The translations under genes and the position numbers were made by a program. From Psammoneis japonica (Eukaryota), in assembly GCA_008632985.1 (NCBI GenBank), contig QPGO01000001.1:838404-902403 (forward strand): a stretch of DNA of 64,000 bases. The letters are read 5' to 3'. The notes under the pieces are model-generated. The model worked only from the letters and a program-made list of their open reading frames with translations. It had not been told where the DNA came from and searched no databases. Positions 1 to 60,460 of the stretch are shown here, one piece after another; within the stretch, counting starts at the first letter, position 1; each line of letters opens with the position of its first letter.

Positions 1-2293
1 TTCCTGGAAAGTCATGGCTTGTCTCCCACACCGGCAAGCAGTGCAATTTTGGCGAAAAACAGCGGTTCATCGAATGTGACAACTGCACCGAATCCGACAA
101 TTGGCGTTTGAAGGTTTTGAAATGTGCAGTTCACATGTGGGTCCAACAGCCCTGATGGGGGCTGGACACACTCATGAGTGTTTGGGGGTGCTCAGAGGCA
201 TCGCAAAATGACACGGGCAAAGTGCGGGGAAATTGCAAAATCACGAGCTGATTAAAAAAATGCCTCATCTAGACGATCCATCCTCAACGGGGACCCCCCG
301 CAAGTCTGTACGTCCATCCACTTGAGCAACTTTTTCGAGTTGAACACAACCCTTCTCGTGTCAATCGCTGTGATAAAATCCATTTCAGTCTGTTGCACAC
401 CAACCTTGTTGCAGCTGTTCTGCTGGCAATCCTTTTCAACAAATCGTTTGTTCTGCTCCTGTTGCTGACATTTGGTGAAAAGGATCACCAGCAGAAAGTG
501 TTTTGCAACAACAACAATTGCATCTCAATGTCACCGTTGCCAATCAGCAGCGATGCCCCAAACGCCTCCACGCCCACCCAAATGGAAGAAAAAGCCGACG
601 AAAAGAAGCACACAATCCCGGCAGATGATGCATGGTGATGGCATGGAAGAAAACCAGGGTTTCAGTGCCATGGGCAAGTCGCAAAATGTCAATGTTCTTT
701 GTCGTGTTGCGCCAACGTCGTGCATCTCATGAACGTTCGTTTGGTCATTGCAACTGTCCTGCTGTCAATGCTTGCCAACAAATCGTTTGTTCTGCTCCTG
801 TTGGTGAGGTTTGATCAAAAGGATCGACAGCAGAAGGTGTTTTTATGACAGCAATTGTTTGTCTCCATGTCGCCGACCCAGCGACACAACAAACGCCTCC
901 ACCATCCACCAGCCCAGAGCCCACCCAAATGGAAGGTCAAGCCAGAGGAAGAGGCGCAAGCAGGAGATGTGGAGTGCCCTTAGCTGTCCCTTTGTTGATG
1001 GAGAAGTTTTGAACATGAAAACAACCACAAACGGTGTCTTTTGTGTGTTGGCGGCATCAAACAAACATGCATTCAGTCGAGGTGCCGGAAACAAAAAAAG
1101 AATGCCAAACTGTCTCCTGTGGGACACTCACAATGCCCACCCATCAGTGAACGACAAGTGCAAGGGTTTGAAACATTGTCTGAGCTGGGACAACTGCAAC
1201 CAGTTGTGATGCTGTTTGTCAGTGTGCACAGTGCACTCGCCACAACTCTCGATTCTGGGTTTTGACTCTAGTGCAACTCTCGATTCTAGGTGCCTTCTAA
1301 CAGAAATGCTCAACAAAGCATTGCTTTAAAGTCTTAAAATGGCAATTGCTGCTCGAGCAACTCCCACACAACGAAATGGGGCTGCCCAACATGCCAGTCG
1401 CATTGCGTTTTCGCGGATTTCCCAATCCCGATCATCCGATCATGCTCTCTACAAACCATTGGGTTGGTGTCTTAGAATCTTGTGTCAACACCCATTGCTG
1501 CTAAAGACACTCCCCCAAATGCCCAACATGACATCCACGTTTCGGTTGTGTGTTTCAAGGATTGCCTGATTCCGACAGTTGCTGCTGGACTGCTGGAGCT
1601 CACATTTGCAAAATCATCCAACAGATCAATGTAGACCAATTTCTCACCGGAGCCCATGGTTCTGCCATGATTGCCAGTTGTAGATTCTGAATCACTGTGA
1701 GGCAGCACTTCTGAACTGCCAAAAGTGTCGGGAGCAGCAGCAGCATTTCCATCCTTGCAGCCGGCTTCAGACAGTCTTCCATGACGCCTGTGTCTTCCTT
1801 GTCTCTCACTTTGCTTGGCGCCCAATCCTCAGAAGAAAAACACCCTTTGGGCTCGCATGCTTCATGGCACCTGTGCTGGAGGTCTTCACCCGACCAAGTG
1901 ACAGTGCAGCAGTGTGACCCTCGGCACAGTTGTCTGCCGCACGCAAAGGGCGGCCGAATCTGAGGCGCCTCAGAAGGCAGATGAGATGTTGGACTCAACA
2001 ACTCCCAGAAAGATGCCACACGTTGTAGGTCCTTAAACACAAGGCCACCATCCATCCATGCACATTGAAAGGCAGCTGGAAACGCGGTGACAAGAAGCCT
2101 TGCGGCGTCAGCAGTCTTCATGGTTGATGTGCTGTTTTTGTTACGGAAAAAACATCGTGTGTCCACAGACCTTTTTTGGCAGACGATTGATGGACCATCG
2201 TGACAGCGCCAACTCTTCAGACCGCAGAAGCCACAAAACATCAGAATCAGCCGCAATGATGATGACACCCCGGCTCACACTCCTGACCTCACC

Positions 2294-4647
2294 ATGTCAT
2301 TTTTTCGTGATTTACACACTGTCGAGCAAGCATCCGAGTTCCTTGATGTCTCTGCAGCGGCCTTGCATGTTGTGGAGCTACTTGAGGGGGAAACATGCTC
2401 CATCTCTGGATGCGACCACCCTGCCGTGCGCCGCAACAGATCAAGAGGACCTGGCTCCGGTCACTTTTGCGTTCTCCACCGTCAAGGGTGGTTCCCAAAA
2501 GCTGATCAAGAAAGCAGTTGTCGAGGGTGGGGTCTCTGTGGGTCTCAACATCTCCGTGATGAAGCACTTGGTCGCAAACAGAGTTGCTGTTGCTGTGACG
2601 ACAGCTGCTTGAAGATCGGCTGCTGTGCAACCAATGTAAGGACACCTCGAAAGAAGGAAATCATTCGGACCAAGATTGCAAATGCTGTGGGTGGAGACCT
2701 CTCAGATGTGGTGAAGGATGACAAGCTTCAAAATGAGCCACGTGCGGGACTGTGGCTGGCTCCGTGGCATTTTAGACCGGAAGAAAGGACGTGCAATCCC
2801 AAGATGAAAGAATGGACGATGAACGAGATTGATCCCAATGAGCAACACTGTGATGGCGACCACTTTGCACGGACTGGTTTTCCACCACCAAACTGCCTGC
2901 CTTCAGACTTTGTTGCATGCGAACTTTCTGATCCTGCTTGGGAACGACCAATCAACTGGTGGAAAAGCAAGCAGGCGGCATCAGTGCGAGGCGCAGGCTT
3001 GCAGTCGTGGGTTGCGGCATGCCGTTCGGTCAAACCACTGAGTGAGCGTGATCCCAAAACTCCTCTTGCACATGTGGCCTTTGCAAAAACTCAAGTTGTT
3101 GTGAAGAAAATGTCTAAGATGGCTGTGTTGAAAACAGAAGAGTCAGAAAAGAAGGATGACATCATTGCAAATCTTCGCAGCACCCTTGCACTCGCAAACC
3201 ACGACAAGAATGTCTCCAAGAAGAATGCAAAGCAACTTCAGAACCAACTGGAGTCCTGCAAATTGGAGCTCATTAAGTCCAAAGAGACAATGCTCGAGTT
3301 GGAAGACGAGTTGGTGGCTGCTCATGCCACAAATGAGGATCGTCCTTTGTTTTGCAGCGACCTTGCGCCAGGTGGTGGACTTTCAAAGGCAGCAAGGACG
3401 TGTGCGCATTTTCCCAACTGTGATTCTAATGAGGCCTTCCTGTGTGTTCTGAGTTGGGATGATGACACAGAGGGAGGTGGTTGCGACCGTGGCGATGGAC
3501 TGTGTGTTGGCTTTCGTCGATGCAGCAGGGTGTCTGCCAAAGAAAACGACTCGGAGAAGTGGATGTTAGTGACCAGGAGTTTCCCACCAAACCTGAAGCA
3601 AGAGTTGTTGATTGGAAGACCAAATGCTTGATCTGTTCCATGTGTGCAAAACTTGGAATCTCGTACGAAGCTGTGGAACCTTTGTTTGCCGTCTCTCCTG
3701 GCATCATCAGTGACATGACACACACTTGGGCTGTCTTCTTGAATCGTTCTCTGTCACTGTGGTTTCCGACTCCAACCAGATCACAAATGCTGCGGGCTTT
3801 CCCTGATCGATTTGCATGGGCTTGTGGACATGCCCTTGTCTTCTCACTTCTCGATGCGACAGAGTGTTGGACACAGACAACAACCGAGAGTGATGCTCAC
3901 TCGAGCATGCACAGTGACTGCAAAGGTCATGACACAACAAAAATGCTTGCAGGCACAGATCCCATTGGTTGTTCCCACGATGGATCCATCGCGGAAGATG
4001 GGCACCCAGGATCAATTTCAGATCCTGTCGCAACAAAGATGAGCAAGCTTTTGGACAACGTGCCCTTTGGTCACACGACTCTGGATGACAAAGGATTCAC
4101 GATCGACAACTTTGCAGCACGGATGGGCGTCGGGACCCAACGACCTCCGAAGAAGATAAAGCTGCAGGTGAAGCAATCAGAAGCGGACACGGCTGCCACG
4201 CAAAAAGTTGGGAATCTACGAATCTTTAACGAGATGGTGAATGGAGCTGCAAAGATGTCGACGCATTGTTTTGATTTGCCAGTGCCGATCCTCCAGCTTG
4301 GTCTTGTGCCTTTGATGTTTCGAGTGGCATGCCTGATGCAGAACTTTCATCCTGCATTAATTCATGGGCAGACGTCATCATTCGTTGACGAAAATGGCAA
4401 GGTGCAGTCAAGAAAGCGACCATGCCGTGGTGAGATCCGATGGTGCGGCGCAACAGATGAAGGCCTGTTGGACTGTGGAGGTCACATTCATCTTTGGGGT
4501 AACGTGAAAGAGGTTGATGGATTCACTTTTCTGAGAAACGAGCACCCAGACAAGAGTCTTGTCGAAACAGGCGAGATGGCACTGCAAGAGAAATGGGACA
4601 ACAAGCTACAAGAAGGTCACACGAAGCATGCAGTCGGCAACCCATAA
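2294..4647 (+). pseudogene. ISL2EU/Harbinger-type transposase (possible THAP-like N-terminus, coiled coil, HTH, DDE_Tnp_4), frameshifted near 3480-3630
   Basis: LLDATE..., MHSDCKGHDTTKMLAGTDPIG, GSISD, DDKGFTI and KVGNLRIFNEMVNG match the DDE_Tnp_4 pattern (IDxTE, YSxYKxH, GxxSD, ADKGF, RIxVER). Split over ORFs 2294-3631 and 3481-4647. Confidence 0.8.
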
Positions 4648-4649
4648 AT

Positions 4650-4835
4650 TGTGACAACGAATGTCGACACTGTCGTTACAAAAAAGAACAACCTTGCTGT
4701 CATTGCAACAATGAGCAAAAGTGCTGTCGTTACAAAGCATGTCGACACTTTCATTGCAACACCAAGTAAAAGCACCACAGTTGCAACACATGCCACCAAC
4801 ATCATTGCTGCAATGATGAGTGCTGACACATCACC
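4650..4835. repeat. Degenerate minisatellite between the convergent transposon ORFs
   Basis: Recurring gtcgacact, gctgtcgttacaaa and tcattgcaaca units. Confidence 0.5.
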
Positions 4836-4838
4836 ACT

Positions 4839-7102
4839 CTAAGACTCTTGCAGTGTTCTGAACAGATCTTTGATTGCGGCACGATCGCTGCGAAAGCAAG
4901 CTTCATCAAGCATTTTCTTGCGTTTTGCCATGGTCCCATGGATTTCGAAGTTAGCTCCGACACCCTTTCTAACATTTCGAAAGGTGTCCGAATCATGCTT
5001 CTTTGAAAGCTTCTTCTCCCCTTCCTCTGTGGTCCTGGGTGCTCTGGCAATCTGCATCTGTGAAACGTGACTTGTTGTTCTTGTTTGTGGTCGGCTTGAA
5101 GATGGTTGGAGCCACGCACAAAAGTCAATCGTTGACGGCTTCTCTACAAGGCGGTCTTCGCCCCAATGAAAGCACTGGGACCACATGGTCCTAGCTTTGT
5201 GACTGCAGTGGCCCAGCCCGGCAGCACATGGGCCCATGCAGAGTGATGCAACAATGCCCGTGATTCGACCAAGGTTGTGTTTGTCCTTGTCAAATGAAGT
5301 CTCCTCCACTCGCAGCACAAGCAATGTCAGGTGCAACCGTCGATGAGCACGTTCGTCTGGATCCGCATTTCGTTTGGCAGCAGAATCGGTTGTCATGGAT
5401 GCCGGTTGTTTTGCCAGGACATGCAGCAGCTCTCTGTCCTCGGAGAAACAGATGGCGTGACAATGCAGCTGTTTCTCCTCGCATGCATGCTGCAACGTCC
5501 CCCCGATGCTTTTCTGATTGATGTTTCGGCCAATGTGAGCAAAGCATTGACATGTTGTAGACTCGGGCAGTTCAGGACTTTCAGTGCAAATGTGGTCAAA
5601 GTCATCACTGAACTTTCCTCCAGCAAACAAGTTGTGGCAGTCCTCGAGGTGCTTCTTAATGTGGCAGCTCCGTGGATCCAAAATAAACGGGTCGCTCAAT
5701 TGATTGTTTGAGATTCGGAGAATGGATTCTTTGCTGTTGTCGCATTTTGTCTCAATTTTTTTGAATGATCCACTGGTCTTCTTATCTCGATTGCATGCAT
5801 GACACAGCTGGGGAACGGAAGAGAAAAGGTTTTGGAAGCCTCGTGCCGACTGCCTCATTTCGTCACGCGACATGGCGGATCCCATGTCATTCACTGCATT
5901 TCCACCATGAGCACTCAAGCAGTCTTTTAATTCAGCAACAGTGCAATCCTCCACTCCCTTGTTCTTTGGCAGTGAGAAGCTGGCTGTGCCATCGATCTCC
6001 TCTTTCGAACGATGAAGTAACTGCGACGTGCTTGTTGACTCAAGTGCTTTTTTCTCCTGGTTGGAAAAAAATTCCTCCCACGTTCGTGGATTGATCAATC
6101 TGCCAGAATGCTGTCTTGTCCTTTCATTTGACCGCTCTGTTGTTTTGCCAGACTGCACAAACATTGCTGTTGCTGTCATGACAGCGACACTCTTCGTAAC
6201 ACGTCACAACGTCGCGAATGTACGTTTCACACCGTTCCACAGCATGCAAGTCATCGTGAACATTTTTGTTGAGTTTTGAGCTAAGATGGAGAGCAAAGCT
6301 GGCAACCAGCAATTCAACTGTCACACCTGGACAACTCAACATGGACTGGAATGCATCAGCCACCGTTTGCTTCCCAGCACCGTGCACTCCACTTTTGTCC
6401 GGCGTACAATCACATCCGAAACAAGCTCCACAAATCTGGAACACAATGTGGCCGAACTTCTTGAAAGATTTCCAAATTGTGGCAGATGGATTGTTCGAGT
6501 CAAGCTCTGGACTGTCTGGGGATTGATGTGAGATCAAAGCATTGAAAATCCTCTCTTGAACAGCTGTCAACTGCCATGACACGCTGGTGCCCAAGTGCAA
6601 GGAGATCGCTGTCGCCCGTGATTGCAGCACACGGACAGCTGCCGTCATCATTGTTGAACCCAGTCAGGCGGCATTGGTGATCTGCCTCTCCACGTGCAAC
6701 AATGGAATCGATGCCAAGGTCATCGCACACCTTCTTCGTCATCGCCACGAACAATGGAGCCATTCGACTGCTTGCTTGTTTGCCATGTTCAGCAGCTTCT
6801 CGGCGGAGGGCATCGCGACGCTCATGTTCATGGCGTTTGTCGGCCAAGTCTTGACCATCAAAGACCACAAACATGTTCCACTGACACATGCATCGAAAGC
6901 AATAAATCTTACGAGCAAAATGTCGGAGTGGGATGGAGTGATCAATGTTCTCCTTGTCGGTTGAGGTGCAAGACATCATGCAGCTTCGGAGAAGGCCTGC
7001 TGCATCAAACGAAACACGGTTTTTCCCAAAATTCAGCTGACGAAACGTCTTTGGCCTGTTCGGGGGCAAAGGCACTAGTGGCAGAAGTCCGTGGATTCCC
7101 AT
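4839..7102 (-). pseudogene. XPG/FEN1-like (PIN + H3TH) nuclease with SAP domain and SWIM-like zinc finger, in three frameshifted pieces
   Basis: MGIHGLLPLV, VSFDAAGLL, VVFDG, GEADHQC, GDSDLLALG (XPG N/I); GCDCT..GVHGAG (H3TH, consensus GCDY); CTVAELKDCLSAHG (SAP-like); CxxxCAAGLGHCSH (SWIM-like). ORFs 6500-7102, 6124-6651, 4839-6179. Confidence 0.7.
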
Positions 7103-7651
7103 GGGTCTGCTCAGAGATGATGCTCAGCATATGAGTGCTTTGACGAGCGCACCTCGACGTTGTGCGATGGAGTGTCGAAAATCCAGAAAAAAGTCAGCGC
7201 TGTCACAAACAGCGATTTTCGTCTGCACGTCTTCCGCCAAAAAAGGTCTATCGCGGAGCGGAATCGGCTACGGGCAACGTACAGAATTACGGGGGGTCCC
7301 CGTTAACATAACTTTTCTTAACAGTATGGAGGAAGAACTGTAAAATGTAGAAGTAATACAGTGTCAGCTCTCCCGAATTTTCACCGCACGGTCCCCACGG
7401 TCTCGTGTCTTCGTTGTTATTATTTGTGGTCGTGGAAAGGGTGAGATCGTTCCCAACATCGCTGTGTTGTTGTCCAGCTTGTATGTTATGTTGAACTGAC
7501 ATCAGTGCATGGCGTGCATGGCTGCGTTTTATGATTGGTCTTACCGCCGATTGAATTTGATTCGTCTGCGTCCACAACACTTTTCTGTAGGTCAAAACCG
7601 TTCCGACACACAAGCACAAAACGTTGTTCCACCATCGACGCTTTCAGAGCC

Positions 7652-10120: not shown

Positions 10121-10699
10121 TTGAATGAACTCACACATTTTGTATTCGAAGGTATGAGTGACTAAACTAAACTTAAATGTACAAAACCGGCCTATTTTGT
10201 GTGTGTCATGGCCGGATGAAGATCGAGAGTATGGTTTTGGAAATGTGAGAAAATGGGCCGTAGAATCTGGCATGTGTCACGTAGACTCACCAGGCATCCG
10301 GACGGCATTTAGTCAGCAATCCTCGACATCGGACAAAATAAGACAACACACACATTGCAGGTAATTGCATCATTCCTGAGGATGACACCAACTGGCCAAT
10401 GCTTAAAATGTGGAAATGGGACCTTCAGTGAGTGTGTCATGGTCAAAAGAAGATGGAGAGCAAGGTTCCGGAAATGTGGGCACCATCGACCGTAGAATCT
10501 GGTGCTTGTCATGTAGAAATGACACAATTCTCAAACATTTTTTGTGGATTTTGACGTCATGTGCTGCATGGCATACGAACAGGCTGCACACACACCTGGC
10601 ACAGTCACTTCTGTAGAAATCACACATGTTCCTTCACCTGAATGCACTGGTTGCATTGGGGCAATGGTTGTGAGGGAATCCAGGTGTCTGTGGGAGGAC

Positions 10700-18246: not shown

Positions 18247-18273
18247 TACTGGTCCAAGCTAACAGAAAGCACC

Positions 18274-22470: not shown

Positions 22471-22559
22471 AATGCTTGAGGAGTCTACGCAAAGGCGCTT
22501 GGCAGCCCGGTGGTTTCGACATGGTGATGTACCAAAGCACGTAGAAATCTACTAAAAGA

Positions 22560-28810: not shown

Positions 28811-28887
28811 AGGGCCGGCTTACCGCAAACTCCAAAAAACTTCACACACAACACTTTGTACCGTGTAAGTGCTGTCCCTGTTATACA

Positions 28888-47100: not shown

Positions 47101-47795
47101 CGCACGCGTCAGTGCTGATGTGATCCACGTGAAGCACGCACTCTGCTCTGCGCTCTTTCAACTGTTTTTGCATCACAGATCTCATCAAGAGGGGTGAACT
47201 TGAAATTGTGTTTTGCCCAACTGACAAGATGCATGGAGACATTGTGACCAAGCCTGTGGTTGGTGTGAAGTTTGTTGTGGATCGTCAACAGATCATGATT
47301 GTCCAAGTGCCTAAGGGTTAGCCTAAGATGGGCAAACCCAAAATTGGAAAGCGATCGTCAACAGATCATGAGCATCCAAGTGCCTGCGGCAAGATGGGCG
47401 AATCCAAAATTGGAAAGTGTCTTGTCCTTCGGTCAGCAGGAGTGTGTTGGAAAATTATACACCAAAAGCTCAGGTGGATGCCGAAATTAGATGGCACAGC
47501 TTGCAAGACCAAAACGCATGCGTCATTGCTGATGTGCTCCACGTCAGGCACATGCACTGCTCTGAAGCAGTCATTGATCTCTTTCAATAATTTTTGCATC
47601 ACAGATCTCATCAAGAGGGGTAAACTTGAAATTGTGTTCCGCCCAACTGACAAAATGCTTGGAGATTTTATGACCAAGCCTGTTGTTGGTAAGAAAAGAA
47701 GTTCATGGTGGATCGTCAACAGATCATGAACATATAAGTGCCTAAGACGGGCAAACCCAAAATCGGAAAGTGTCTTGTCCTTTTGGCAACAGGAG
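44150..47795 (+). repeat. Patchwork array of shuffled Copia family A-like 3' end/LTR fragments, duplicated as two blocks
   Basis: Repeated cagcaggagtgtgttggaaa, aaattagatggcacagca and gatctcatcaagagggg..ttgaaattg units. Block ~44150-45590 is repeated at ~46555-47795; exact 190-bp tandem at 44263-44642. Confidence 0.8.
45610..46119. mobile_element. MITE with ~40-bp TIRs
   Basis: ggatggatccacgggggtgagggcggacatttacgg versus ccgtaaatatccgacctcacccccgtggatcaatcc; flanks tcaa (45606-45609) and ttaa (46120-46123); AT-rich, TpA-normal interior. Confidence 0.85.
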
Positions 47796-50267: not shown

Positions 50268-53200
50268 TGACAGGATTTGAACAGGATTCAGGTGCGCGCG
50301 AAATGTCGCACGCTGTTTAGTTTGCCGAGCACAGTTTTGTGTGCTTCAGTTCCGCGCGTTCGCGCGCGATGCAGTTTGCTTTCGAGCCACAAGGCTCACA
50401 AGAATAATGACAGTAGCCCAATCACACCGACTTGCACGTCTTTCGGCTCCTGTGACGGTCTCTGAGCAGAGACTCATCTGCCATTTAGACAGCAGCAAGG
50501 AGTTGTTGTTTGAATTCTTGCCATTTGCCTTCAACTTCTGTCAGATTGACAGTCTTGCTCATTGTCAACCCATTGAGCAACCGCCATCGTCGTCGTTGAT
50601 TTTGCCGACGACGCCACTTCAATTCTGCGTGGACCTCCGTGTGTGTTCTACATGCATCGGCAAATCTGCGCGCATGTGACACCAGGGCATCGGCAGGAAG
50701 TTAACGTCGCCGTCAAGTCTCCTTGCCGCTGTGTGTCTGGATTGATCACACTGCCTTTGGTCGCTGAAGACATGCACTCAACGGTCACATCCAAGTCCAT
50801 CCTTGATCCTCATCCCTTGATGCACCTGTTCATCGGTTGATGGTCAAGAACCCTGCATGTTCAAGGATCTTCGTCGCTGAAGACATGTGCACACACGCAT
50901 GTCTTCACGGCCAAGAACCTGCACCCACTCTTCGGACTGCGGTTTTGCTGCCACCCCACAAGCACACCGAGTCCATTGTGCCTGATCTGCCCCAGACCAC
51001 TGGTGCTCTGCAGTTCTGCCAGGTCCACGAGGACGACTGTGAGAGCAAGTGGCCGTGATTGCAGCCTGCGTTGGGGCGAGGGTGCTTTCCCGCGTTTGTT
51101 CGTTCGTCCACAGCACCCAACGCCTGCGTCAGCTGGCCAGCCTGATCGGGAAATCCAACCAATGTAAAATGAGAATGGTTCGGGGGTCTTGTCCACCTCC
51201 AGTCAGCTTGCCTGCAGGGGTTTGCAACCCGCTGCTCCGCTCGCAAGCAACCCAAAGCGCCGCCAGCTGCGGGTTCGGACGTGCTGGCACAACTCCACGG
51301 ACCGGATGGGAAGTTTAGCACTTGACAACAAACGGGGTGGCAAAGCCCGGCGACTTCTGATTTTGAGATAGTTCAAGATTTCAAGTCAAGTCTGTTTCAA
51401 GTCAAGTCCATTCTCGCCCAAGTTTCGAGTCTGCCTTCGCTTCCCAACAAGAATCGATTGTCCTGACACCACTTTTGTCTGCCATGGTTCTCACTCGTCA
51501 GCAACAAACCGATGGTTTTGAGCACGTTGTTGGAACCGTGCTTGCCCAAGGTGCTGGGAGCCCTCTTCGTTTGGCTTTGGCCCAAGACGGCACGGACTCG
51601 CATCAGGAACTGTTCACGTTCATGCCGTCCCAAATCGACTCGCTTGAGTGCGACAACGGCACCAATGTGATCCCTTTGCCCCGTGGTTGTAAGAACATGT
51701 TAGCAGCTCTGGTTAGTCTGTGCATTGTCAAAGCACACAAAGGTCTTGACGTCGCCAATGACTCCTTGTTGTTCACACATGACGAGTTCCTTGCCCACCG
51801 CCTCAGCCCCGACTGCATGTCTTCTGTGTCCATCGGCAGTTCACCCCTCGCACCTCCACATGTCACCAACCCGACCAAGGCACGCGACCCGGTGCGGGAC
51901 TTCAAGCGAGGCATCAAGCGTGATCCCACCGCTTTCACGGCTCTCAAATCCGACAAGCAGTGGCACACTTGGCACACCTCACTTGTGGCACAAGCCAGTG
52001 CCCAAGACGTCGAGTGCATTCTAGACTCGTCGTACAAACCGACCAGCCCCGAAGACAAACTGCTCTTTGCTGAACAGCAAAAGTGCATGTTCGCCGTCTT
52101 CGAACGCATCCTTCTCACCGACAAGGGCAAGGCTCTCATCCGTGAAAATGTGGGGTCTTCTGACGCCCAGACCGTCTGCTGCGCCTTGTCTGAGTGCGCC
52201 CTCGCCTCCACCCGTGCATCTGTCGAGTCCTCCACCTTGCTGACGTGCCTCACCACCGCACGTCTTGGTGATGGCACTTGGAAAGGTCCGACCCACGGGT
52301 TCATCCTTCATTGGCAAGATCAGTTGCGCAAGTGCGAGGCACTCATCCCGGCCAGTGACCACTTCTCTGAAGGACAGAAGCGCGTCATGCTCGAGAATGC
52401 CGCACACCCTGTCGAGGAACTCCGTGCTGTCAAGAACCAAGCTGATCAGCATCGCACGCAGAGTGGCAAGAGCCTCACATGCGATCAACACTGTGGCTTG
52501 CTCCTCTCCGCGGCAGCTCAATGCGACAGCACGTTTCAACCCAAGACGACACCTCGAGCTCCCCGGCCAGTGACCACTTCTCTGAAGGACAGAAGCGCGT
52601 CATGCTCGAGAATGCCGCACACCCTGTCGAGGAACTCCGTGCTGTCAAGAACCAAGCTGATCAGCATCGCACGCAGAGTGGCAAGAGCCTCACATGCGAT
52701 CAACACTGTGGCTTGCTCCTCTCCGCGGCAGCTCAATGCGACAGCACGTTTCAACCCAAGACGACACCTCGAGCTCCCCGACGCGCCATGTGCGCACACG
52801 ACGTCCACTCCGAGGAACCATCCGATGATGTGTTCTACGACATCGACAGCGACGTTGACGTCCTTCAGGCTTGCGCTGCCTGCACCCGCGGTCCCAGCCT
52901 CGCCGGTGACCAATGGCATCGTCTCCCTCCCGACCACCAACGGATTTGGGATTCGTTGCCTGATTCCTCCAAAGCAATCATCCTTGCACATTCTCGCCCG
53001 CCTCCTCGCAACCCGCGCGCCAGCAACCACCATGAGTCCGTTGCGATCAACCTTCATGACCAACGACTTGGGAGCGATGGTGATGTCAACTTGTCCAACA
53101 CGCCTCCTGCTGCCGCTGGTGACCCCGCCCCAAATGTGGACGCCACATCAGATGATCCCATTCTGGCGCACCTCACCAAGCGCAAGCCATTGCCTCCTGG

Positions 53201-56200
53201 TGATCTGCAACGCCTGTTGTCCCCTGACCAAGCCCCCAACGCCAGTCGATCGGGCCCATCCGCCGCTCCCTCTACCTCGCCAGCTCCCACAGATGACACA
53301 GAACTCAACGGCCGCACCTGCCACCGCGTTGACAACCACAACGTCATTTGCTCTGCCTCCGCTCATCGCTCCACACGCACCGGTGCTCCAGTCGATCGTG
53401 GAGCCAACGGCGGCATTGCTGGCGACGACGTTCGCGTCATTGCACACACCTCTCGCCAAGTCGACGTTCAGGGCATTGACGACCGCCAATTGGTGGACAT
53501 CCCCATCGTCACTGCTGGTGCCGTCATTGAGACACAGCGTGGTCCCGTCATCGCCATTCTCCATCAGCACGCATGCACTGGAAAGGGCAAGACCATTCAT
53601 TCCTGCGGCCAGCTGGAATGGCACAAACACGATGTCAACGATCGCTCTGTCAAGGTGCCCAACGGCTTGCAGCGCATCGCCACCCCTGACGGCTGTGTCG
53701 TCCCAATCGACATCAAGGGTGGCCTGCCTCATGTTGCCATGCGGCCCCACACTGACGATGAATGGGACACTCTGCCACATGTCATCCTCACTGGTGATGA
53801 CACATGGGATCCTTCCGTCCTCGACCACTCTGTCACTGACGACGACCAGTGGCATGACGCGATCTCCGACCTGCAGGACGATCCCACTGCCAACCTGTTT
53901 GACGAGTGCGGCAACTGCCGTCACCGTGTCGTTGTCAACCAGGCCATCATGTCCGCCTCCTTGTCCCCCGATCACGCGTCCGCTCTCGATGACCACCTCA
54001 TTCCAACTGAGGACGTGTTCTACGAATGCCACTTGCGCGCAGTTGACCCCACGGACGACGATGTCCCGCCTCCGGAGCGCAATGTGCAGCCCAAGGACCC
54101 CCCTTGCGAGTCCCTTCGGCCCTGCTTTGGTTTCCAACCTGCCGACACGGTCCGCCGCACCTTCGACTGCACCACGCAATGCGCCCGCCTGCCCGCCGGT
54201 GCGCACCTTAAGAAGGCCCACAAATCGCCCAACCCTGCCCTTAATGTGCACCGTCGCAACGAGCCCATCGCCACTGACACCGTTTGTGCCAACACCCCGG
54301 CTGTCGACTCTGGTTGCACCAGTGCCCAACTGTTGTTGGCACCGAGTCTACCGTCACTGACGTCTGCGGCACCAAAACCGACAAAGAGTTTGTCAATGCA
54401 CTCGAGGACCAGATCCGCGAGCGTGGTGCTCCATCCAAACTCATCAGCGACCGCGCTCAGGTTGAGATCAGCAACAAGGTGCTCGGGATCCTACGAGCCC
54501 TCTTCATCTCCAGCTGGCAAAGTGAGCCTCACCAGCAACACCAAAACTTTGCCGAGCGTCGACACCAGACCGTGAAGCGCATGGCGAACACTGTCATGGA
54601 TCGTTTTGGTTCGCCCGCCCACACATGGCTGCTGGCACTCATGCATGTGTGCTTTGCACTCAACCACACAGCGTCCCCATGTCTCCACTGGCGCACGCCC
54701 CTCGAGACTCTCACTGGCTCCACCCCGGACATCAGCCCATTGCTCCGCTTTCACTGGTGGGAACCCGTGTGCTTCCACCTCGATGACTACGATTGGCCGT
54801 CCGAATCCCGTGAGTTGCGTGGGCGCTTTGTTGGCATTGCTGAGCACGTCGGCCACCAGATGACCTTCAAGATTCTCTCTGACGAGACTCAGAAGATCCT
54901 CTGCCGGTCCAACGTACGCTCTGCTGCCACCGATCCTGCCGTTCGAAACCTGCGCCTTGATCCTCCTGATGGGGAGCCACCTGAACCCATCATCAAATCT
55001 CGCCATGACGACAATCCCGTCGATTCTCCTGATGGGGAGATCAGGACACCCAAGATGCCAGTTTTCGATCCGCAAGACATCATCGGACGCACCTTCCTCA
55101 TGCAGCCACAAGAGGACAGACAACGCCACAGAGCTCGCATCGTCAAGGCCGTTGAGGACCATGAATGGAAAGTGAACGGCAATCCCGAGCTCACTAAATT
55201 CGTCTGCTCTGTCAACAACGACGAATGCGAGGAAGTCCTTGCCTGCAACGACATCATGAATCACATTGAGCAAGAGGACGAAGACACTGCTGTTTGGAAA
55301 TTTCGACGTGTCGTGTCACACGAAGGACCTCTGAAGCCTCATGACCCAACCTGGAAAGGCTCAAGCTACAACATCATGCTTGAATGGGAAAGTGGGGAGA
55401 TCATGTCCGAGCCTCTTGCCATCATCGCCAAGGACGACCCCGTCACCTGCGCCATCTATGCACGAGAGAACGGACTTCTCGACACGGATGGCTGGAAGCG
55501 GTTCCGCACCATCGCGAGGCGCCAAAAGAAGCCATTTCGCGTGGCCAGCCAAGCCAAGCTTTGCTCCTTCCGCACTGCACCTCGCTGCAAGTGCGGATGC
55601 AAAGTTCCCCGGAACTGCAAGCATGCCATGTCACTGGACGAACGCAACGGCAACCGCAAATGGGGAGACGCAACTAATCTCGAGATGGACCAACTCGATG
55701 AATACGAAGTCTTCCATGACTGCGGGCCCTTCGAGTCTTCCACTCCTCCTGCGGGACACAAGAAGATCCGAGTGCACCCAGTGCGCGACGTGAAACACGA
55801 CGGTCGCCACAAGGCACGACTCGCAGCCGACGGGCACCTCACGGACGTACCTGTCGACAGTGTCTGCTCCGGAGCAGTCTCCCTCCGTGGCCTTCGGCTG
55901 ATGATTTTCCTGGCCGAACTCAACGAGTTGGAGACATGGGCCACCGACATTGGCAATGCCTGCCTTGAAGCCACCACCAAGGAGAAGCTTTACATTGTAG
56001 CTGGACCCGAATTTGGCAAACTCGAAGGACACATCCTTGTCATCCACAAGGCACTGTATGGACTGCGCAGCTCCGGTCTCCGCTGGCACGAGCGCTTCGC
56101 CGACTGCCTGCGAGCTGAAGGCTTCTTCCCCTGCCGCGCCGAACCCGACATTTGGATGCGCAGGAACGGCGACCATGTGAATGCATTGCCGTTTAAGTGG

Positions 56201-57589
56201 ATGACCTCGCCATTGCCATGAAGGATCCTCAATCCTTCGTCGACACCCTCACGGAAAAGCACAAGTTCAAGCCAAAGGGCACGGGACCGATTGAGTTCCA
56301 TCCAGGCTGCGACTTTTCCCGGGATCCTGACGGCACCTTGTGCTTGTCCCCACGCAAGTACATTGAACGCATGGTCGACAGTTGCACACGACTGTTTGGG
56401 GAGAAACCCACCACCAACGCCCTGTCACCTCTGGAGAAGGGTGACCACCCCGAACTGGACACTTCCGAACTGCTGGGGCCCGATGGCATTCAACAGTTCC
56501 AGTCTCTTGTTGGTTCCCTCCAATGGGCGGTGTCTCTTGGTCGAATTGACATTGCCACAGCCGTCATGTCACTCTCTAGCTTCCGAGCTGTGCCCCGTCA
56601 AGGGCACTTGGATCGTGCCAAACGCGTCTGTGGGTGCCTCTCCAAGATGCGACATGGCGCTCTCCGCGTTCGCACGGAAGAGCCCGACCATTCGGATCTC
56701 CCTGCACCGGCCTGTGAATGGATGCATTCCGTGTGCGGCGAAGCGGAGGAGATGATCCCGAAGGACGCTCCACCGCCCCTTGGCAAGTTCGTCACCACCA
56801 CCCACTACGTCGATGCAAACTTGTGTCATTGCATGCTCACCGGACGCTCTGTCATGGGAATGCTCCATTTCCTCAACAAGTTCCCGGCTGATTGGTTCTC
56901 TAAGAAGCAAGCCACGGTGGAAACTGCAACCTGCGGGTCTGAATTTGTTGCCGCAAGGACTTGTGTCGAGCAGATTGTCGACCTGCGCATTGCCCTGCGT
57001 TGCCTCGGCGTCCCGATCCGTGACATTGGTTGCATGTTCGGTGACAACAAGTCGGTTGTAGACAGTGCCACCACCCCGCACTCCAAGTTACACAAGCGAC
57101 ACACCGCTCTGTCATTCCATCGTGTGCGTGAAGCGATTGCCTCTGGTTGCCTTGAGCTCCACTTCATCGAAGGCTCCCGCAACCCTGCTGACATTCTCAG
57201 CAAACATTGGGGTTGCTCCCAAGTCTGGGACCTTCTCCGTCCCCTCATGTTTTGGAACTTCATTCCATCCGAAGTCGAATCTGTTTCTGTGACTCCTCAA
57301 GCAAACTGGGGAGTGACAGGATTTGAACAGGATTTGGGTGCGCGTGAAATGTCGCGCACTGTTCAGTTTGCCGCGCACAGTTTTGTGTGCTTTAGTTCCG
57401 CGCGTTCGCGCGCGATGCAGTTTGCTTTCGAGCCACAAGGCTCACAAGAATGACAACAGTGGCCCGATTGCACCGACTTGCACGTCTTTCGGCTCCTGTG
57501 ACGGTCTCTGAGCGGAGACTCATCTGCTGTCTAGACAGCAGTGAGGAGTCATTGTTTGAATTCTTGCCATTTGCCTTCAATTTCTGTCA
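50268..57589 (+). mobile_element. Ty1/Copia LTR retrotransposon (family B, CoDi-like), full length, mutated
   Basis: LTRs 50268-50543 and 57314-57589 (TG...CA); TSD GGCCA at 50263-50267 and 57590-57594; PPT ggggag. Confidence 0.95.
51484..57313 (+). pseudogene. Copia gag-pol, frameshifted
   Basis: FKRGIKRD (gag), VDRGANGG (protease), LISDRAQVE and SEPHQQHQNFAERR (integrase), DIGNACLEA, KALYGLRSSG (RT), YVDANL, ETATCGSEF, NPADILSK (RNase H). Confidence 0.9.
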
Positions 57590-59713
57590 GGCCAGCAGAG
57601 GATGCTCACACACCTCACACAAGCTGAGCTGTTTCAGCTCCTCTGTGCTGTTCTGCTTGGAGAAAACCAGCTCTCGATGCCGCCATTTGAGCTCAGCTGT
57701 GCACAAGCAATCCTCCGACGACTCAGCAACGGCAACCATCGAGGCGGCAACTTCTTGCACACTGGCTGGCGGTGCCTCTGACTCTGAGCCAGAGAGCCGC
57801 CCTGCTCAGCGGAAGCTTGCCTGCAAAGCCACCCTCCAAGTCAACTGCCAGCCTCAAATCCAGTCTTGTCAAGAGCAGCCCTTTTCCTCAGGATCTCAAT
57901 GGCAAGACTGTTTTGCCAAGTGTCTGGTTCAAGGGGAAAGCTTTGCATGACAAGTTTGCCCAATGCCCAGTCTTGGATTGTGGAGCAGACAACGCCAGGC
58001 CATTTTGGCTCAAAAGCAGGCTGCCCACTCTTTGGCGACTGATTTTTCCTCAGATGACAGCGGCTGCCAAGCAGAAACAAACTCAGATTTGGGCCATCAG
58101 CCATTCCCACCACTCCTGCTGCGGTCACTTGCTTCAGCACCCAAGGTGAGGGGCAACCTCTCAGCTCTGGACTTGTCGACAACGACTCCAAGCCAGAGCG
58201 AGGGGGCCACACTTGATGTGCTGTTTTCTGAAATCTCTGTGTGACAGGGCTTGCCTGCTCTCAAAGGCGGTGGTTGGTTGTTTTGAAAAGAGAGCTTGCT
58301 TTTCTGCCATGTGCTGCTGTTGTTGCTGGGTGAGTCAGTGAGCGATCATCACACAAAACGTCCTGTGCTGCTGGGGTCGACAACCCAGGAGCTGCTTTCT
58401 CAAGGAATCGAAAATCTTGCTTTCAATCTCACGTCTCCTGTCTCCAGAAGAGCTGCACCAAAATCCTCCAGATGCTCTTTGACAAGAATCTTCAACTTGA
58501 AATTGCTGCTTGAATCAGGGCACTTGTTGCTGTGAAAGCTGAAGGTGGCTTCCTTTGCTGCCGCGGACCCGACTCCAAAAGCTTTTCTTTTGGCACTTTC
58601 GTGCACGTGTTGAGGGTTCCAGTCCCAGGTGTTAGATGTCAGACGGACGACGGTCAGACGATTGGCACTTGAAGAAGAAGACAGATGTGGTGTGAGGTGT
58701 GGTGCGTGCCCAACAGAGGAGAGGGAGAAAGGATCGAGTGCAGTGCAAGCACTTCTGTTGTTGAAATGCTGAGAAATTGCAGTGATTTCAAGAGTGAGAA
58801 GATGCAATTGCAAATGACAGTGGAGGACAAACTGGGAGGCTTCATTGGAATGACACCAAAGTGCCATCCTGAAATGGCAGGAGCAGGCATTGAAGGTGCT
58901 TGGGTTGTGCAAAACTGCGCTGTCAAAAGGAGTTCAATGATGCCGTCACTGCTCATCTGAAGGACAACCTCAACCTTTTTGTTGCCAGCATGACATCACA
59001 TCATTTGGGTCCCGACTGCAAGTGCCAACCGCTTCCACAGCACGGCAGGAATCTGGAGGAGAAAGCAACAAAAAACAAACCATGTGAGAAGAGCACCCGC
59101 CATGATGCTTCTACAGAGCATGTGTGCTGTTCTTTTGACACGTTTGACTGCATGTGTGTGTTGTCAATCTAACAATCTGCACTTTGCTGTCTCACTGTTT
59201 TGCATGACGATGATGATTCCCAAAGCCTTGCGTCAAGAGATGGGTCAGGAAACCTTTCCAAGCCAACAGCAAGTGAAGAATCACGATCCACTGTCATGTT
59301 GCAGAATGATTTCTCCGCTGAAAGTTGGGGTGATGATTCCCATTCCGACTCAAACTCTCTCAGACCCAGCAATGGATCAATCTCCAATCCTTTGTCACAA
59401 GAAGATTTCGTCACTGCAAGTTCCAATGATGATTCTCATTCCGATTCAAGTTCTCCCCAAGCAAGTGACGAATCAATGTCCACTCCCATGTCACAAGAAC
59501 TTGTCGTCAGCGCAAGTTGCGATGATGATTGCTCTGACTCTGACTCTGTCCCTGCATGTGACGAATCACGCCCCACTTCCATGCCATCCAACGCCGACAT
59601 GCCTTCGGATGATGACATTTCTGACGCAGGCACTGGTCTTACGTTGTGCGAAAGAGAGGAGATTCATTTGAGGCGACATCTGGGAAGGCTGTCAGACAGA
59701 ATCTTGGCGAAGT

Positions 59714-60460
59714 GTGATTTCGACGTGCCAGCATTTGCTGATGATCTCTCTGGGTTTGTTGTTGTCGATCCTCGCTGTGTTGCAACCAGTGGTGATTGTT
59801 GGCTGGGAACAACAAAGTGTGGGCACAGAGTGTGGGCACAGAGTCGAACAACTGTGTGAATCCTACAATGCCCAAGGAGCAGACCAAGAACTGATCAGAT
59901 GCAAGTTGCTGCAGGAATTTGGTGGGAAGTTTTATGGAGAGTGCAAAAAGGAACCTGGTGTGTTGAGAGAGCTTCCTGACGATGTAGCAGACAGGAGGAT
60001 TGCGGACAAGTTCCGTTCGTTTTGCTCGAGAAAAAGCCCGTTTAGTCCACCGGTGGCAGCAGATCCTCTTCGAGTGTCACCGCGATTGCGTGCTCTTCGT
60101 GTCAATGTGATCAACCAAAGGGAACTCGACGTTCAGAGAGACATTGTCTTCGGCGTTGATGATCAGGAAAATGTCGAAATTGCCAAGCTAATCAAGAAGG
60201 GGCTACAGAACTGGCGAGAAGCAAATGAGAAAGGTCGACGTCATGTTGAGTCAAAGATCCTCGAGTTTTTGAAGAAGGAGCAACCGAGAATTCGTTTCCT
60301 GGAAAAGTTGACCAGCAATGCAGCTGCTTATTTTCAGATCTTGTGTGACGACAAGGCATTGAAAAATTTGAAACGCCTCTTTCATGAACGAGACCGAGTC
60401 ATCCAGAAACAAATAAAAAAACTCGAATGCTGCAACAACATGCGCATTGGAAAGAAGTGA
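59714..60460 (+). CDS. Hypothetical protein or pseudogene, possibly DUF6824-like, preceded by an S/D-rich repeat
   Basis: GGKFYGE...LPDDVADRRIADKFR and RIRFLEK...ILCDDKALKNLKRLF resemble diatom DUF6824 repeats (from memory). Partly TpA-eroded; frame change near 59800. Confidence 0.35.
   Translation: MISTCQHLLMISLGLLLSILAVLQPVVIVGWEQQSVGTECGHRVEQLCESYNAQGADQELIRCKLLQEFGGKFYGECKKEPGVLRELPDDVADRRIADKFRSFCSRKSPFSPPVAADPLRVSPRLRALRVNVINQRELDVQRDIVFGVDDQENVEIAKLIKKGLQNWREANEKGRRHVESKILEFLKKEQPRIRFLEKLTSNAAAYFQILCDDKALKNLKRLFHERDRVIQKQIKKLECCNNMRIGKK

Follow-up and report, generated by a model that had tools for sequence, protein, structure and literature searches.

Across 64,000 nucleotides of contig QPGO01000001.1 of Psammoneis japonica (hereafter the window, meaning the whole stretch analysed), the dinucleotide TA is scarce (observed/expected 0.27) and TG and CA are abundant (1.50 and 1.44; CG, 0.69), which raises the question of what has removed TA, from which DNA and in which direction. 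Our reading, to which we assign a probability of roughly 0.85, is that the low-TA blocks are transposon-derived DNA of a diatom-like genome, TpA-hypermutated in the chromosome after insertion.

TA content of the blocks and their surroundings

Segmentation with a two-state HMM on TA positions, the rates of which were preset by hand rather than fitted (0.006 and 0.04 per base), gave seven low-TA blocks totalling 43,770 bp (43.8 of 64 kb, 68% of the window). These hold 286 TA (6.5/kb, observed/expected 0.10), against 1,785 expected at the normal rate; the other 20,230 bp hold 825 (40.8/kb, observed/expected 0.57). At the normal rate, 1 kb would hold 13 TA or fewer with a Poisson probability of 4e-7, and the switch between low and normal TA occurs within ~100 bp at the block borders. 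An earlier note on this DNA had counted by hand 5 TA in 52801–54300 and 26 in 29401–30000, both exactly right, and its limits for the transposon blocks nearly coincide with those of the HMM, except that the last block ends at 61608, not 60400. The features are as follows (TA and CG as observed/expected).

1..7248: block 1, TA 0.12, CG 0.69; remnants of a Harbinger-type DDE transposase and an XPG_N-like nuclease (HMM, Pfam)
3466..4644 (+): DDE_Tnp_4 transposase ORF of a class II element, Pfam E 2.8e-14, stripped of tyrosine
6503..7123 (−): XPG_N-like nuclease ORF within block 1, Pfam XPG_N E 6.6e-6
10615..13867: block 2, 9 TA in 3.25 kb, TA 0.05, CG 0.29 (HMM)
14058..17621: block 3, TA 0.11, CG 0.78 (HMM)
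18226..20178 (+): control host ORF with an FHA domain, in a normal-TA region (Pfam, HMM)
22554..28672 (−): block 4, TA 0.10, CG 0.34; LINE-like RNase H/zf-RVT-type tail ORF at 24557–26278
28786..34681: control host genes, TA 0.56
28786..30909 (+): control 2OG-Fe(II) oxygenase of DIOX_N/2OG-FeII_Oxy type (Pfam)
32693..34681 (−): control FAD/BBE oxidase (Pfam)
34856..45104: block 5; Copia A1, Copia A2 and further repeats
35320..41017 (+): Copia A1, LTRs 35320–35548 and 40777–41002
41237..43528 (−): Copia A2, a deleted copy, LTRs 41237–41476 and 43289–43528
46286..47311: block 6, within an array of ~2.2-kb repeats
49298..61608: block 7, TA 0.11, CG 0.80; Copia B and flanks that are low-copy in sequencing run X1
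50268..57590 (+): Copia B (CoDi-like), LTRs 50268–50544 and 57314–57590
61749..63948: inverted repeat of normal TA density, arms 61749–62253 and 63444–63948 (505 bp), 97.6% identical

The DDE (Harbinger-type) element, the two Copia families and the block with the LINE-like RNase H tail are all affected, as had been claimed. Pfam searches found no recognisable transposon domain in four of the low-TA blocks, nor any recognisable domain in blocks 2 and 3, and no match for the block 4 tail ORF, whose nearest clusters in the Atlas are hypothetical proteins of Bacillariophyta together with RNase_H/zf-RVT clusters; the RVT_2 match in block 5 (38835–39707, E 7.7e-6, 26.1 bits) lies under the Pfam cutoff of 31.6 bits. 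The host genes are normal in TA, as previously described, with Cylindrotheca closterium as the best named relative of those at 28786..34681 (47% identity). Equal depletion in unique intergenic DNA, which the earlier note had named as evidence that would count against it, is absent in the window, where unique non-coding DNA at 20–22, 31–32, 48–49 and 62–64 kb has a TA observed/expected of 0.52–0.75. The depletion is restricted to the low-TA blocks.

Low-TA and normal DNA differ in TA, CG, TG and CA only, the other 12 dinucleotides being at most 0.11 apart in observed/expected. Within the blocks the excess of TG and CA (8,642 observed less 6,724 expected, or 1,918) is matched by the deficits of TA (1,500) and CG (424), together 1,924. 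In transposon-derived DNA, ~85–90% of TA has been turned to TG or CA, and the adjoining genes have been spared.

Direction, timing and context of the change

The coding remnants fix the direction of the change. At 42 consensus tyrosine positions of Copia B pol, which is broken over three frames (52446–54572, 54278–56218 and 56197–57450), there are now 7 Tyr, 21 Cys, 6 His, 5 Phe, 2 Trp and 1 Arg, with other conserved residues retained (Arg 55 of 56, Gly 96%, His 96%); a first pass over 18 Tyr columns had given 4 kept, 8 Cys and 2 His. Compared with nine homologues, the DDE transposase keeps Tyr in none of seven conserved columns, which carry 5 Cys (TGC/TGT), 1 His (CAC) and 1 Phe. Four normal homologues retain between 24 of 31 and 35 of 44 Tyr and show no Cys replacements. 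Among metagenome Copia loci, TA observed/expected is 0.31–1.00 (median 0.72), above the 0.12 of Copia B in 80 of 80, and Copia B has a GC content of 57.1% against a median of 47.9% for these relatives. Metagenome locus L011, with a TA of 0.31, bears the same Tyr-to-Cys/His signature (Tyr 16 of 37 kept, 11 Cys, 7 His), as do two database proteins, P0039 (Tyr 4 of 33 kept, 14 Cys, 10 His) and P0120 (7 of 23 kept). Judged from these replacements and the 80 TA-richer relatives, the depletion is mutational rather than native.

The XPG_N-like ORF, from a sparse family (73 relatives at E≤1e-3 in 1.84 billion representatives), counts against this pattern: Tyr is lost from all five columns, just two of which became Cys or His (1 Cys, 1 His, 1 Lys, 1 Phe and 1 Leu).

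Timing can be read from the LTRs, of which three pairs (746 bp) were compared. TA is kept in both LTRs at 7 sites and faces TG or CA at 10, and at 14 sites TG in one copy is opposite CA in its partner, where CpG decay predicts ~0.9 such doubles. The fitted TA loss per LTR copy is 0.71, implying ~41 TA sites (55/kb) at insertion, a normal density. The bulk of the loss is therefore post-insertion and fell on both strands. Of the 367 mismatches in selected repeat pairs, 322 are transitions, and no TA/CG doubles occur. Together with the Tyr polarisation and the TA content of the relatives, the LTR differences bear out the core of the earlier proposal, namely that TpA in transposon-derived DNA is converted to TpG or CpA and that both strands are hit. 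All of this is drawn from fixed differences in one 64-kb window, with 0 de novo events seen.

Deamination of 5-methylcytosine also gives TpG and CpA, and has acted on the same blocks (CpG observed/expected 0.29–0.48 in four of them; 14 LTR sites with CG versus TG or CA), but it cannot remove TpA and explains only ~424 of the ~1,918 excess TG and CA. To the idea that the elements are natively TA-poor, or that CpG decay and GC-biased gene conversion alone produced the pattern, we give almost no credence. CpG is indeed depleted in several blocks and TA is under-represented everywhere, host DNA included; nonetheless this account is contradicted by the exchange of conserved Tyr for Cys or His, by the higher TA of all 80 relatives, by the normal TA load of the LTRs at insertion, by Copia B, with near-normal CpG (0.91) and a TA of 0.12, and by AT, AA and TT, which are unchanged and so indicate no general weak-to-strong bias.

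The low/normal density ratio depends on the 3′ neighbour (TAT 0.06, TAC 0.13, TAG 0.21, TAA 0.26) and is 0.023–0.04 for ATAC, ATAT and ATAG against 0.38–0.42 for TTAA and CTAA, taking as baseline host DNA, from which the original composition of the elements may differ. TAT/ATA are the most strongly affected contexts.

These data bear on whether element transcripts underwent A-to-I editing by an ADAR- or ADAT-like enzyme that reverse transcription fixed before integration. ADAR and tRNA adenosine deaminases typically prefer a U ahead of the A that they edit (10.64898/2026.01.13.699255), and sense-strand changes prevail at Tyr codons (21 Cys versus 6 His). The latter bias, however, is explained by the 3′-pyrimidine context of TAY, and the 3′ preference in the window (T>C>G,A) is unlike that of ADAR, which prefers a 3′ G. 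Editing before integration is contradicted by the LTRs, which are identical at integration and now differ mainly at TA-derived sites in both directions, and by the DNA transposon, which is equally affected; we consider it very improbable.

It is similarly improbable that TA is still present and that modified TpA bases in the elements were miscalled in a long-read assembly. Nanopore assemblies are known to miscall modified motifs systematically, and the sequencing platform of the runs is unrecorded, but TG in one LTR and CA at the orthologous site of the other would not be expected from a context-driven miscall, frameshifts are present in the elements as well, and database proteins and a metagenome contig have the same signature. 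K-mer contigs of run X1 (depth ~62) also match the low-TA flanks exactly, with 4 records and 0 differing letters over 57565–61001; the low-TA sequence is real. Run X1, alone among the runs in covering the window well, may be the source of the assembly or its polishing and hence lends no independent support.

Run X1 contributes 13,192 contigs on 47801–62000, with nearly all depth on Copia B (summed depth 28,751–174,927 over 50171–57754, versus 58–168 over 57755–61546). Copia B is a dead, hypermutated member of an abundant family, in whose copies 458 of 553 variable places are transitions. Among the best 40 of 563 places, 37 best-supported internal differences between Copia B and its relatives comprise 13 of CG versus TG or CA and, of TA type, 4 singles and 4 TG/CA doubles, so that recent divergence within the family seems to resemble CpG decay at least as closely. 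At one double site Copia B has TG and 98% of the other copies have CA, a hint that part of the TA loss preceded amplification or that copies were homogenised.

Which DNA is affected

The earlier note had called the process repeat-restricted. In the sense of fungal RIP this is not supported: the low-TA stretch 57755–61546, downstream of Copia B, is at approximately single-copy depth, and is therefore only presumably transposon-derived, and the 98%-identical 505-bp repeat is normal in TA. The few differences between the arms of that repeat already bear the signature of TA loss, with 6 of 12 mismatched bases in TA-derived sites (Fisher p 5e-4; 2 TG/CA doubles and 2 TA/CA singles), and the differences are confined to the outer ~190 bp. 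What is targeted would seem to be DNA that derives from transposons or is silenced, rather than homology as such.

RIP, which depends on duplication, a cytosine-methyltransferase-like enzyme and the sexual phase, is likewise a dinucleotide-specific transition hypermutation that riddles transposons, disables their reading frames and produces blocks of sharply distinct composition next to normal genes. Its direction is the opposite, C:G to T:A and mostly CpA to TpA, creating TpA (PMC2621366), whereas TpA is destroyed in the Psammoneis blocks; the near-identical repeat being barely affected is a further difference.

Related systems and candidate enzymes

The earlier note knew of no described system of this kind. 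A 2026 preprint on the chlorarachniophyte Bigelowiella natans (Mettrop et al., bioRxiv 10.64898/2026.01.13.699255) does describe the same signature, namely TpA-to-TpG/CpA hypermutation of integrated viral DNA, arising de novo in mutation-accumulation lines. According to the preprint, 230 of 231 de novo mutations in two viral inserts are A-to-G or T-to-C, all on TpA; TpA-poor, CpA+TpG-rich 1-kb windows cluster; and DDE endonuclease and reverse-transcriptase Pfams are over-represented in TpA-poor CDS (10.64898/2026.01.13.699255). The two cases are alike in that nearly all changes are A:T to G:C, on TpA alone, giving TpG or CpA by strand, and in that the changes are confined to foreign DNA and the remaining genome is ordinary; TpA-poor sequence includes DDE and reverse-transcriptase domains in both. 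By sequence, the Psammoneis blocks and the B. natans inserts carry one and the same TpA hypermutation signature. They differ in host (Rhizaria versus a diatom-like stramenopile), in de novo versus fixed changes, and in main targets, namely one giant-virus insert present in single copy (Rho TpA 0.45) plus one from a virophage in B. natans, and in Psammoneis transposons at observed/expected 0.05–0.12 over 68% of the window. Neither the preference for particular 3′ neighbours nor the accompanying CpG decay seen in the window is mentioned in the abstract, Results or Discussion of the preprint.

The process is presumably enzyme-driven and would be aimed at silenced or foreign chromatin as a defence. 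As the leading enzyme candidate we tentatively put forward, at somewhat less than even odds, a DNA adenine deaminase of TadA/ADAT type with a preference for TpA. With TadA, ADAT2–ADAT3 and ADAR, A-to-I reads as A-to-G and the edited base follows U or T, the tRNA editing site having the context U33–A34; the candidate would differ in its substrate, the chromosomal DNA of silenced elements. Activity on DNA is reported for amphioxus ADAT2 (PMC10354150), and tRNA/RNA adenosine deaminases are the candidate class of the B. natans preprint (10.64898/2026.01.13.699255).

Second in likelihood, though still unlikely, is oxidation of thymine, in which a TET/JBP-type dioxygenase would make 5-hydroxymethyluracil (5hmU), or a further modified base, at TpA of silenced elements, with mispairing or faulty repair fixing T-to-C. 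TA being palindromic, T-to-C and A-to-G give identical products, so sequence cannot tell thymine from adenine chemistry. In dinoflagellates, another SAR lineage, 5hmU is described as marking and silencing transposable elements, and older Crypthecodinium work cited there had T replaced preferentially in TA and TC; it is presented as an epigenetic mark, its mutagenicity not demonstrated (PMC11572971). Mapping of 5hmU in Breviolum is described as showing no sequence preference. Against this route, TC is not depleted in the window (observed/expected 1.09 in low-TA and normal classes alike), and the sole 2OG oxygenase of the window is of the DIOX_N/2OG-FeII_Oxy type. 5hmU pairs with A; strong T-to-C mutagenicity is not known for it.

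A Pol eta-like polymerase making WA-to-WG errors during patch synthesis at heterochromatin, named as a candidate in the earlier note, is quite unlikely to be the cause. The Pol eta error motif includes TA to TG, and AA/AG is the next commonest class of difference in the Copia A copy pairs (19 of 125 events), but the fit is poor because neither AA nor TT shows depletion (1.20 and 1.21 against 1.15 and 1.16 in the two TA classes), and ~90% loss of a single dinucleotide, with strictly one hit per site, is far narrower than WA.

On the preferred reading of TpA hypermutation in the chromosome, Harbinger-type, two Copia, LINE-like and now unrecognisable elements would insert and then be mutated, mostly within their own limits and with a border width of ~100 bp. 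At each TpA, the A:T pair of the top or bottom strand would become G:C, yielding a TpG or CpA that should no longer be a target, so that each site is hit once and TA never becomes CG. The rate per TpA site would be about two orders of magnitude above that of other substitutions, with ~70% of TA lost from each LTR copy after it inserted and ~85–90% in total. Tyr codons would turn to Cys or His and TAA/TAG stops would be removed, and ordinary CpG decay would run alongside, supplying the remaining fifth of the TG and CA excess. The Psammoneis window is a second instance of the signature, in a diatom, and one in which it is saturated on transposons.

Extent and composition of the low-TA blocks

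Across the whole window TA occurs 1,116 times, an observed/expected ratio (obs/exp) of 0.27, with TG, CA and CG at 1.50, 1.44 and 0.69, respectively. A two-state HMM was run over the TA positions, its rates chosen by hand, and resolved seven TA-poor blocks, which combine to 43,770 bp with 286 TA (6.5/kb); the remaining 20,230 bp hold 825 TA (40.8/kb). At every border the TA spacing shifts over ~100 bp. The block limits are essentially those proposed in an earlier note made from the sequence alone, save that the last block ends at 61608 rather than 60400, and the hand counts in that note (5 TA at 52801-54300; 26 TA at 29401-30000) match ours exactly.

Low-TA blocks, from the HMM on TA positions
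1-7248, block 1
10615-13867, block 2
14058-17621, block 3
22554-28672, block 4
34856-45104, block 5
46286-47311, block 6
49298-61608, block 7

A 190-bp TA-rich island (13868-14057; 14 TA, 74/kb) separates two of the low-TA blocks and may be what is left of the host sequence that once lay between two insertion points.

The two classes of DNA differ in four dinucleotides only. TA obs/exp is 0.10 in the low-TA blocks and 0.57 in the normal region (0.5-0.75 in the host genes and unique spacers of this 64-kb window), CG is 0.61 versus 0.89, TG 1.62 versus 1.24, and CA 1.54 versus 1.23; all others, including AA, TT and AT, lie at most 0.11 apart. Computed against normal-region rates, the low-TA blocks have lost 1,500 TA (1,785 expected, 285 observed) and 424 CG (2,086 expected, 1,662 observed), whilst TG and CA together are in excess by 1,918 (8,642 observed, 6,724 expected). 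The two deficits sum to 1,924, matching this excess, thus roughly four-fifths of the additional TG and CA derive from lost TA and one-fifth from lost CpG. CpG decay is present, but as the whole cause it is rejected, since it covers 424 of the ~1,918 excess TG/CA and leaves the TA loss wholly unexplained; the loss of TpA is separate from it. Error-prone patch synthesis by a Pol eta-like polymerase, a candidate in the earlier note, is contradicted by the AA and TT ratios, which a WA-to-WG error should lower and which stand at 1.20 and 1.21 in the low-TA blocks compared with 1.15 and 1.16 in normal DNA.

The domains and elements recognised in the blocks are as follows.

Features of the low-TA blocks (domains from Pfam; Copia elements from repeat analysis)
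3466-4644, + strand, DDE_Tnp_4 transposase
6503-7123, - strand, XPG_N-like ORF
35320-41017, + strand, Copia A1
38835-39707, + strand, RVT_2, weak and under Pfam's cutoff
41237-43528, Copia A2, a deleted inverted copy
50268-57590, Copia B, with 277-bp LTRs
54278-56218, + strand, RVT_2

The Copia B pol is broken across three frames, hence the window copy is dead. Pfam returned no domain in the blocks at 10615-13867 and 14058-17621, none above cutoff in 57600-61608, and no match among the ORFs of 22554-28672. In the last of these, the Atlas clusters nearest to the ORF at 24680-26278 (- strand) are Bacillariophyta hypotheticals and RNase_H/zf-RVT clusters, a lead that would fit the tail of a LINE. 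The block also contains a 293-bp direct repeat (24385-24677 and 26211-26503, 99.7% identical), enclosing a 1.5-kb stretch of intermediate TA (~20/kb) and normal CpG where the surroundings lack both; the sole N of the window, at 24679, is 2 bp beyond the left copy. Either the segment 24385-26503 is nested and younger than its block, or the assembly was joined here. Perfect tandem duplications occur at 52347-52776 (2 x 215 bp, in Copia B) and at 44262-44641 (2 x 190 bp, in the repeat array near 44 kb); the units of both are 100% identical despite their hypermutated surroundings, and are either very recent or assembly artefacts.

The XPG_N-like nuclease remnant adjoins the Harbinger-type transposase of block 1 and extends into 6127-6663 and 4842-6203 (both - strand). 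Its family is thinly populated: of 1.84 billion representatives, 73 are related to it at E<=1e-3, with a top identity of 40%. It is thus not a canonical FEN1/XPG gene, and an element or a virus may have carried it as cargo. Among the host ORFs of the normal regions, Pfam recognises FHA, 2OG-Fe(II) oxygenase and FAD/BBE domains. Diatoms supply the best named relatives: the BBE oxidase has 46-47% identity to that of Cylindrotheca closterium, and one Copia homologue belongs to Fistulifera solaris. The host is accordingly taken to be a diatom or something closely related; its own proteome contributed no protein to the search results.

Long overlapping ORFs occur in several frames and on both strands of the low-TA blocks, amongst them 51367-54357 (+), 52446-54572 (+) and 53151-54347 (-), with a maximum of 997 aa. 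These are spurious, because TA loss takes out TAA and TAG stops (2.65 versus 10.2 and 1.78 versus 8.7 per kb in low-TA and normal DNA, respectively), whilst TGA density is the same in both.

Direction, timing and context of TpA loss

Tyrosine codons (TAY) polarise the change. Against a profile of 46 homologues, each 1,000 aa or longer, the Copia B pol retains Tyr at 7 of 42 consensus positions, the others being 21 Cys, 6 His, 5 Phe, 2 Trp and 1 Arg; other residues are well preserved, with Arg kept at 55/56 positions and Gly, His, Pro and Trp at 94-96%. A column-wise pass gave 4 kept, 8 Cys and 2 His in 18 Tyr columns. None of the seven conserved Tyr of the DDE transposase is kept (5 Cys, as TGC/TGT; 1 His, as CAC; 1 Phe), so that across the two proteins 33 of the 49 consensus Tyr are now Cys or His, with 7 kept. 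Four ordinary homologues keep 24/31 to 35/44 of their Tyr and have no Cys at these positions. The XPG-like ORF keeps 0/5, with Cys or His in just two, and the Copia B profile aligns Copia A weakly (E 1.5e-5 and 1.5e-3), with uninformative Tyr columns.

A TA-poor native composition is likewise not what related elements show: among 80 metagenome Copia loci, TA obs/exp spans 0.31-1.00 (median 0.72) and GC has a median of 47.9% and a maximum of 54.6%, compared with 0.12 and 57.1% for the Copia B of the window. Given the polarity of the Tyr changes and the higher TA of these relatives, the elements were not born TA-free, and we consider, with a probability of about 0.85, that the low-TA blocks arose by mutation. 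Conversion of TpA to TpG/CpA in element DNA, as first suggested by eye, is borne out both by the balance of the TA deficit with the TG and CA excess and by the Tyr to Cys/His changes. Among selected repeat pairs, 322 of 367 mismatches are transitions.

The two LTRs of one element are identical at integration, and differences between them thus report on later events. In 746 aligned bp from the LTR pairs of Copia A1, Copia A2 and Copia B, the TA-family sites comprise 7 TA/TA, 10 TA versus TG or CA, and 14 TG versus CA; CpG sites comprise 26 CG/CG and 14 CG versus TG or CA. A TG-versus-CA site requires two adjacent transitions, and is most naturally traced to an ancestral TA (or CG) that took a different course in each LTR; by CpG retention, CpG would account for ~0.9 such sites, versus the 14 seen. 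Under a simple model in which losses are independent and both products equally likely, each copy has lost 0.71 of its TA since it inserted, starting from ~41 TA sites, i.e. 55/kb, a normal density. Most of the TA loss therefore occurred after insertion and on both strands. TA-versus-CG doubles are absent from the LTR pairs, so each site takes a single hit, after which it is no longer a target. Since other contexts show only 13 events in the 746 bp, TA sites appear to have mutated roughly 70-140 times faster. In the four Copia A LTR copies, TA, TG and CA coexist at 4 sites and CG, TG and CA at one, so TG/CA is reached by two converging processes. RNA editing of the ADAR type, fixed via retrotransposition, is rejected: a DNA transposon is affected, both products occur, and the LTRs diverged at TA sites after integration.

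The surviving TA sites are non-random. Expressed as density in low-TA relative to normal DNA (a baseline of host DNA, not of unmutated elements), they range from 0.023 for ATAC, 0.025 for ATAT and 0.04 for ATAG, through 0.09 for GTAC, to 0.38 for TTAA and 0.42 for CTAA. By 3′ neighbour on either strand the ratios are 0.06 (TAT), 0.13 (TAC), 0.21 (TAG) and 0.26 (TAA). This 3′-pyrimidine preference explains why Tyr to Cys, in which the sense-strand A is followed by Y, is 3.5 times as frequent as Tyr to His.

Copy number and the choice of target

Three sequencing runs of one sample cover the window, and contigs from one of them (run X1) were used; as this run may be the assembly's own data, it excludes a single-contig miscall but is not independent evidence. 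Depth is ~62 over unique flanks, and 57565-61001 is reproduced with no differing letter in 4 records. Copia B (50171-57754) recruits 13,192 contigs with summed depths of 28,751-174,927, of which 2,729 are at least 99% like the window, 3,738 are 95-99%, 4,727 are 90-95% and 1,998 are below 90%; from this pile-up and spread, Copia B is a large, diverged family. Of 553 variable places in the contigs, 458 are transitions. Among the 40 of 563 places listed, 37 lie in Copia B, comprising 13 CG-versus-TG/CA, 4 TA-type singles and 4 TG/CA doubles, with the remainder of other kinds, so that in the recent divergence of Copia B copies CpG decay weighs no less than TA loss. At one double site, CA is common to 98% of the other copies and TG stands in that of the window; some TA loss may thus be older than the amplification of the subfamily, or copies may have been homogenised.

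An inverted repeat in TA-normal DNA (61749-62253/63444-63948) has 505-bp arms, 97.6% identical and enclosing 1,190 bp. Its inner ~315 bp are identical and all 12 mismatches fall within the outer ~190 bp; six of the 12 mismatched bases are at TA-derived sites (2 TG/CA doubles and 2 TA/CA singles; Fisher p 5e-4). The repeat may represent a foldback or TIR element early in the process, and the TA-derived mismatches of so young a repeat are a weak hint of ongoing activity.

On a repeat-restricted process in the RIP sense, triggered by duplication, the observations point both ways. Copia B is very abundant, but the low-TA flanks at 57755-61546 are low-copy (depth 58-168, at >=80% likeness), and the 98%-identical 505-bp repeat keeps normal TA density. 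Homology alone hence appears not to define the target, nor does present copy number seem to predict depletion; we infer from these patterns that the target may be set by chromatin state or element identity.

Near position 49063, in a unique TA-normal region, an X1 contig differs from the window at three places in 2.5 kb, one of them T-to-C at TpA (CTTAT versus CTCAT), a single case to which we give no weight.

Relation to known systems and possible agents

The signature has been described before, in a 2026 bioRxiv preprint by Mettrop et al. on the chlorarachniophyte Bigelowiella natans (10.64898/2026.01.13.699255); a literature search for it returned no diatom report and no description other than this preprint. 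Of the 302 nuclear single-nucleotide mutations recorded in mutation-accumulation lines of B. natans, a giant-virus insert and a virophage insert received 231; 230 of these 231 were A-to-G or T-to-C, all at TpA according to the text, and rates in the inserts, in some lines only, were ~1,000-fold over background (10.64898/2026.01.13.699255). DDE-endonuclease and reverse-transcriptase domains are stated to be enriched in TpA-poor CDS, and an ADAT2-like DNA adenine deaminase is the agent its authors propose (10.64898/2026.01.13.699255). The window likewise has almost only A:T-to-G:C transitions, restricted to TpA with TpG and CpA as products according to strand, and confined, within these 64 kb, to mobile DNA with the rest ordinary; mutations were seen de novo in B. 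natans, whereas those of the window are fixed differences. Judged at the level of sequence, the window appears to hold the B. natans phenomenon in another lineage, saturated on transposons. The kind is already known from B. natans, and the window is a new, cleaner case in a diatom-like host.

Fungal RIP, in contrast, is a C:G-to-T:A process that enriches TpA and depletes CpA/TpG. A RIP-type test of the low-TA blocks gave the opposite (TpA down to 0.10, CpA/TpG up to 1.54/1.62), with the direction set by the Tyr codons.

No deaminase domain was found among the 154 window ORFs scanned by Pfam (20 + 134). Chemistry on the thymine side of TpA, instead of adenine deamination, is compatible with the sequence: 5hmU is described as marking transposable elements in dinoflagellates, and the same source relates an old report of a TA/TC preference (PMC11572971). 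That preference was not confirmed in Breviolum, as stated in PMC11071213, and TC is not affected in the window. We tentatively propose, as a possibility somewhat short of even odds, that diatoms and chlorarachniophytes share a dedicated, enzyme-driven genome defence in which chromosomal TpA is edited (A-to-I or equivalent thymine chemistry) wherever transposons or viruses have integrated, with silent chromatin or small RNAs as the guide; such a defence, widespread in SAR protists, would mirror RIP, its agent a natural sequence-specific DNA adenine editor.

Among 120 Copia homologues listed from the protein database, two carry the signature: P0039 keeps Tyr at 4/33 positions (14 Cys, 10 His) and P0120 at 7/23 (6 His, 4 Cys). 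So does one of the 80 metagenome loci (L011; Tyr 16/37 kept, 11 Cys, 7 His; TA obs/exp 0.31). These 80 came from an alignment-based scan of metagenomes; the P0039 locus, sought in metagenome contigs, had no confirmed relative there. In the XPG-like family, P0292 and P0324 have <1% Tyr, P0292 being also rich in Cys and His (4.9% and 4.5%). From P0039, P0120 and L011, the process seems to be present in further organisms, as a minority state among related elements. Another Copia B homologue, P0010, keeps Tyr at 29/34 and consensus Arg at merely 10/43, a different, CpG-type decay in another source.

In hypermutated elements the loss of TAA/TAG stops leaves spurious ORFs in all frames, by which gene callers could be misled; their proteins escape domain detection, and LTR-divergence dating overestimates their age. 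A natural TpA-specific DNA adenine deaminase, should that prove to be the agent, would be of interest to the base-editing field. The window adds mechanistic constraints, namely one hit per site, action on both strands and after insertion, a 3′-pyrimidine preference, and independence from CpG decay. The process is thus not peculiar to one species or to viral inserts, being saturated here on ordinary transposons, and a comparative handle is gained: SAR genomes with and without the signature can be set against their complements of deaminase or dioxygenase genes.
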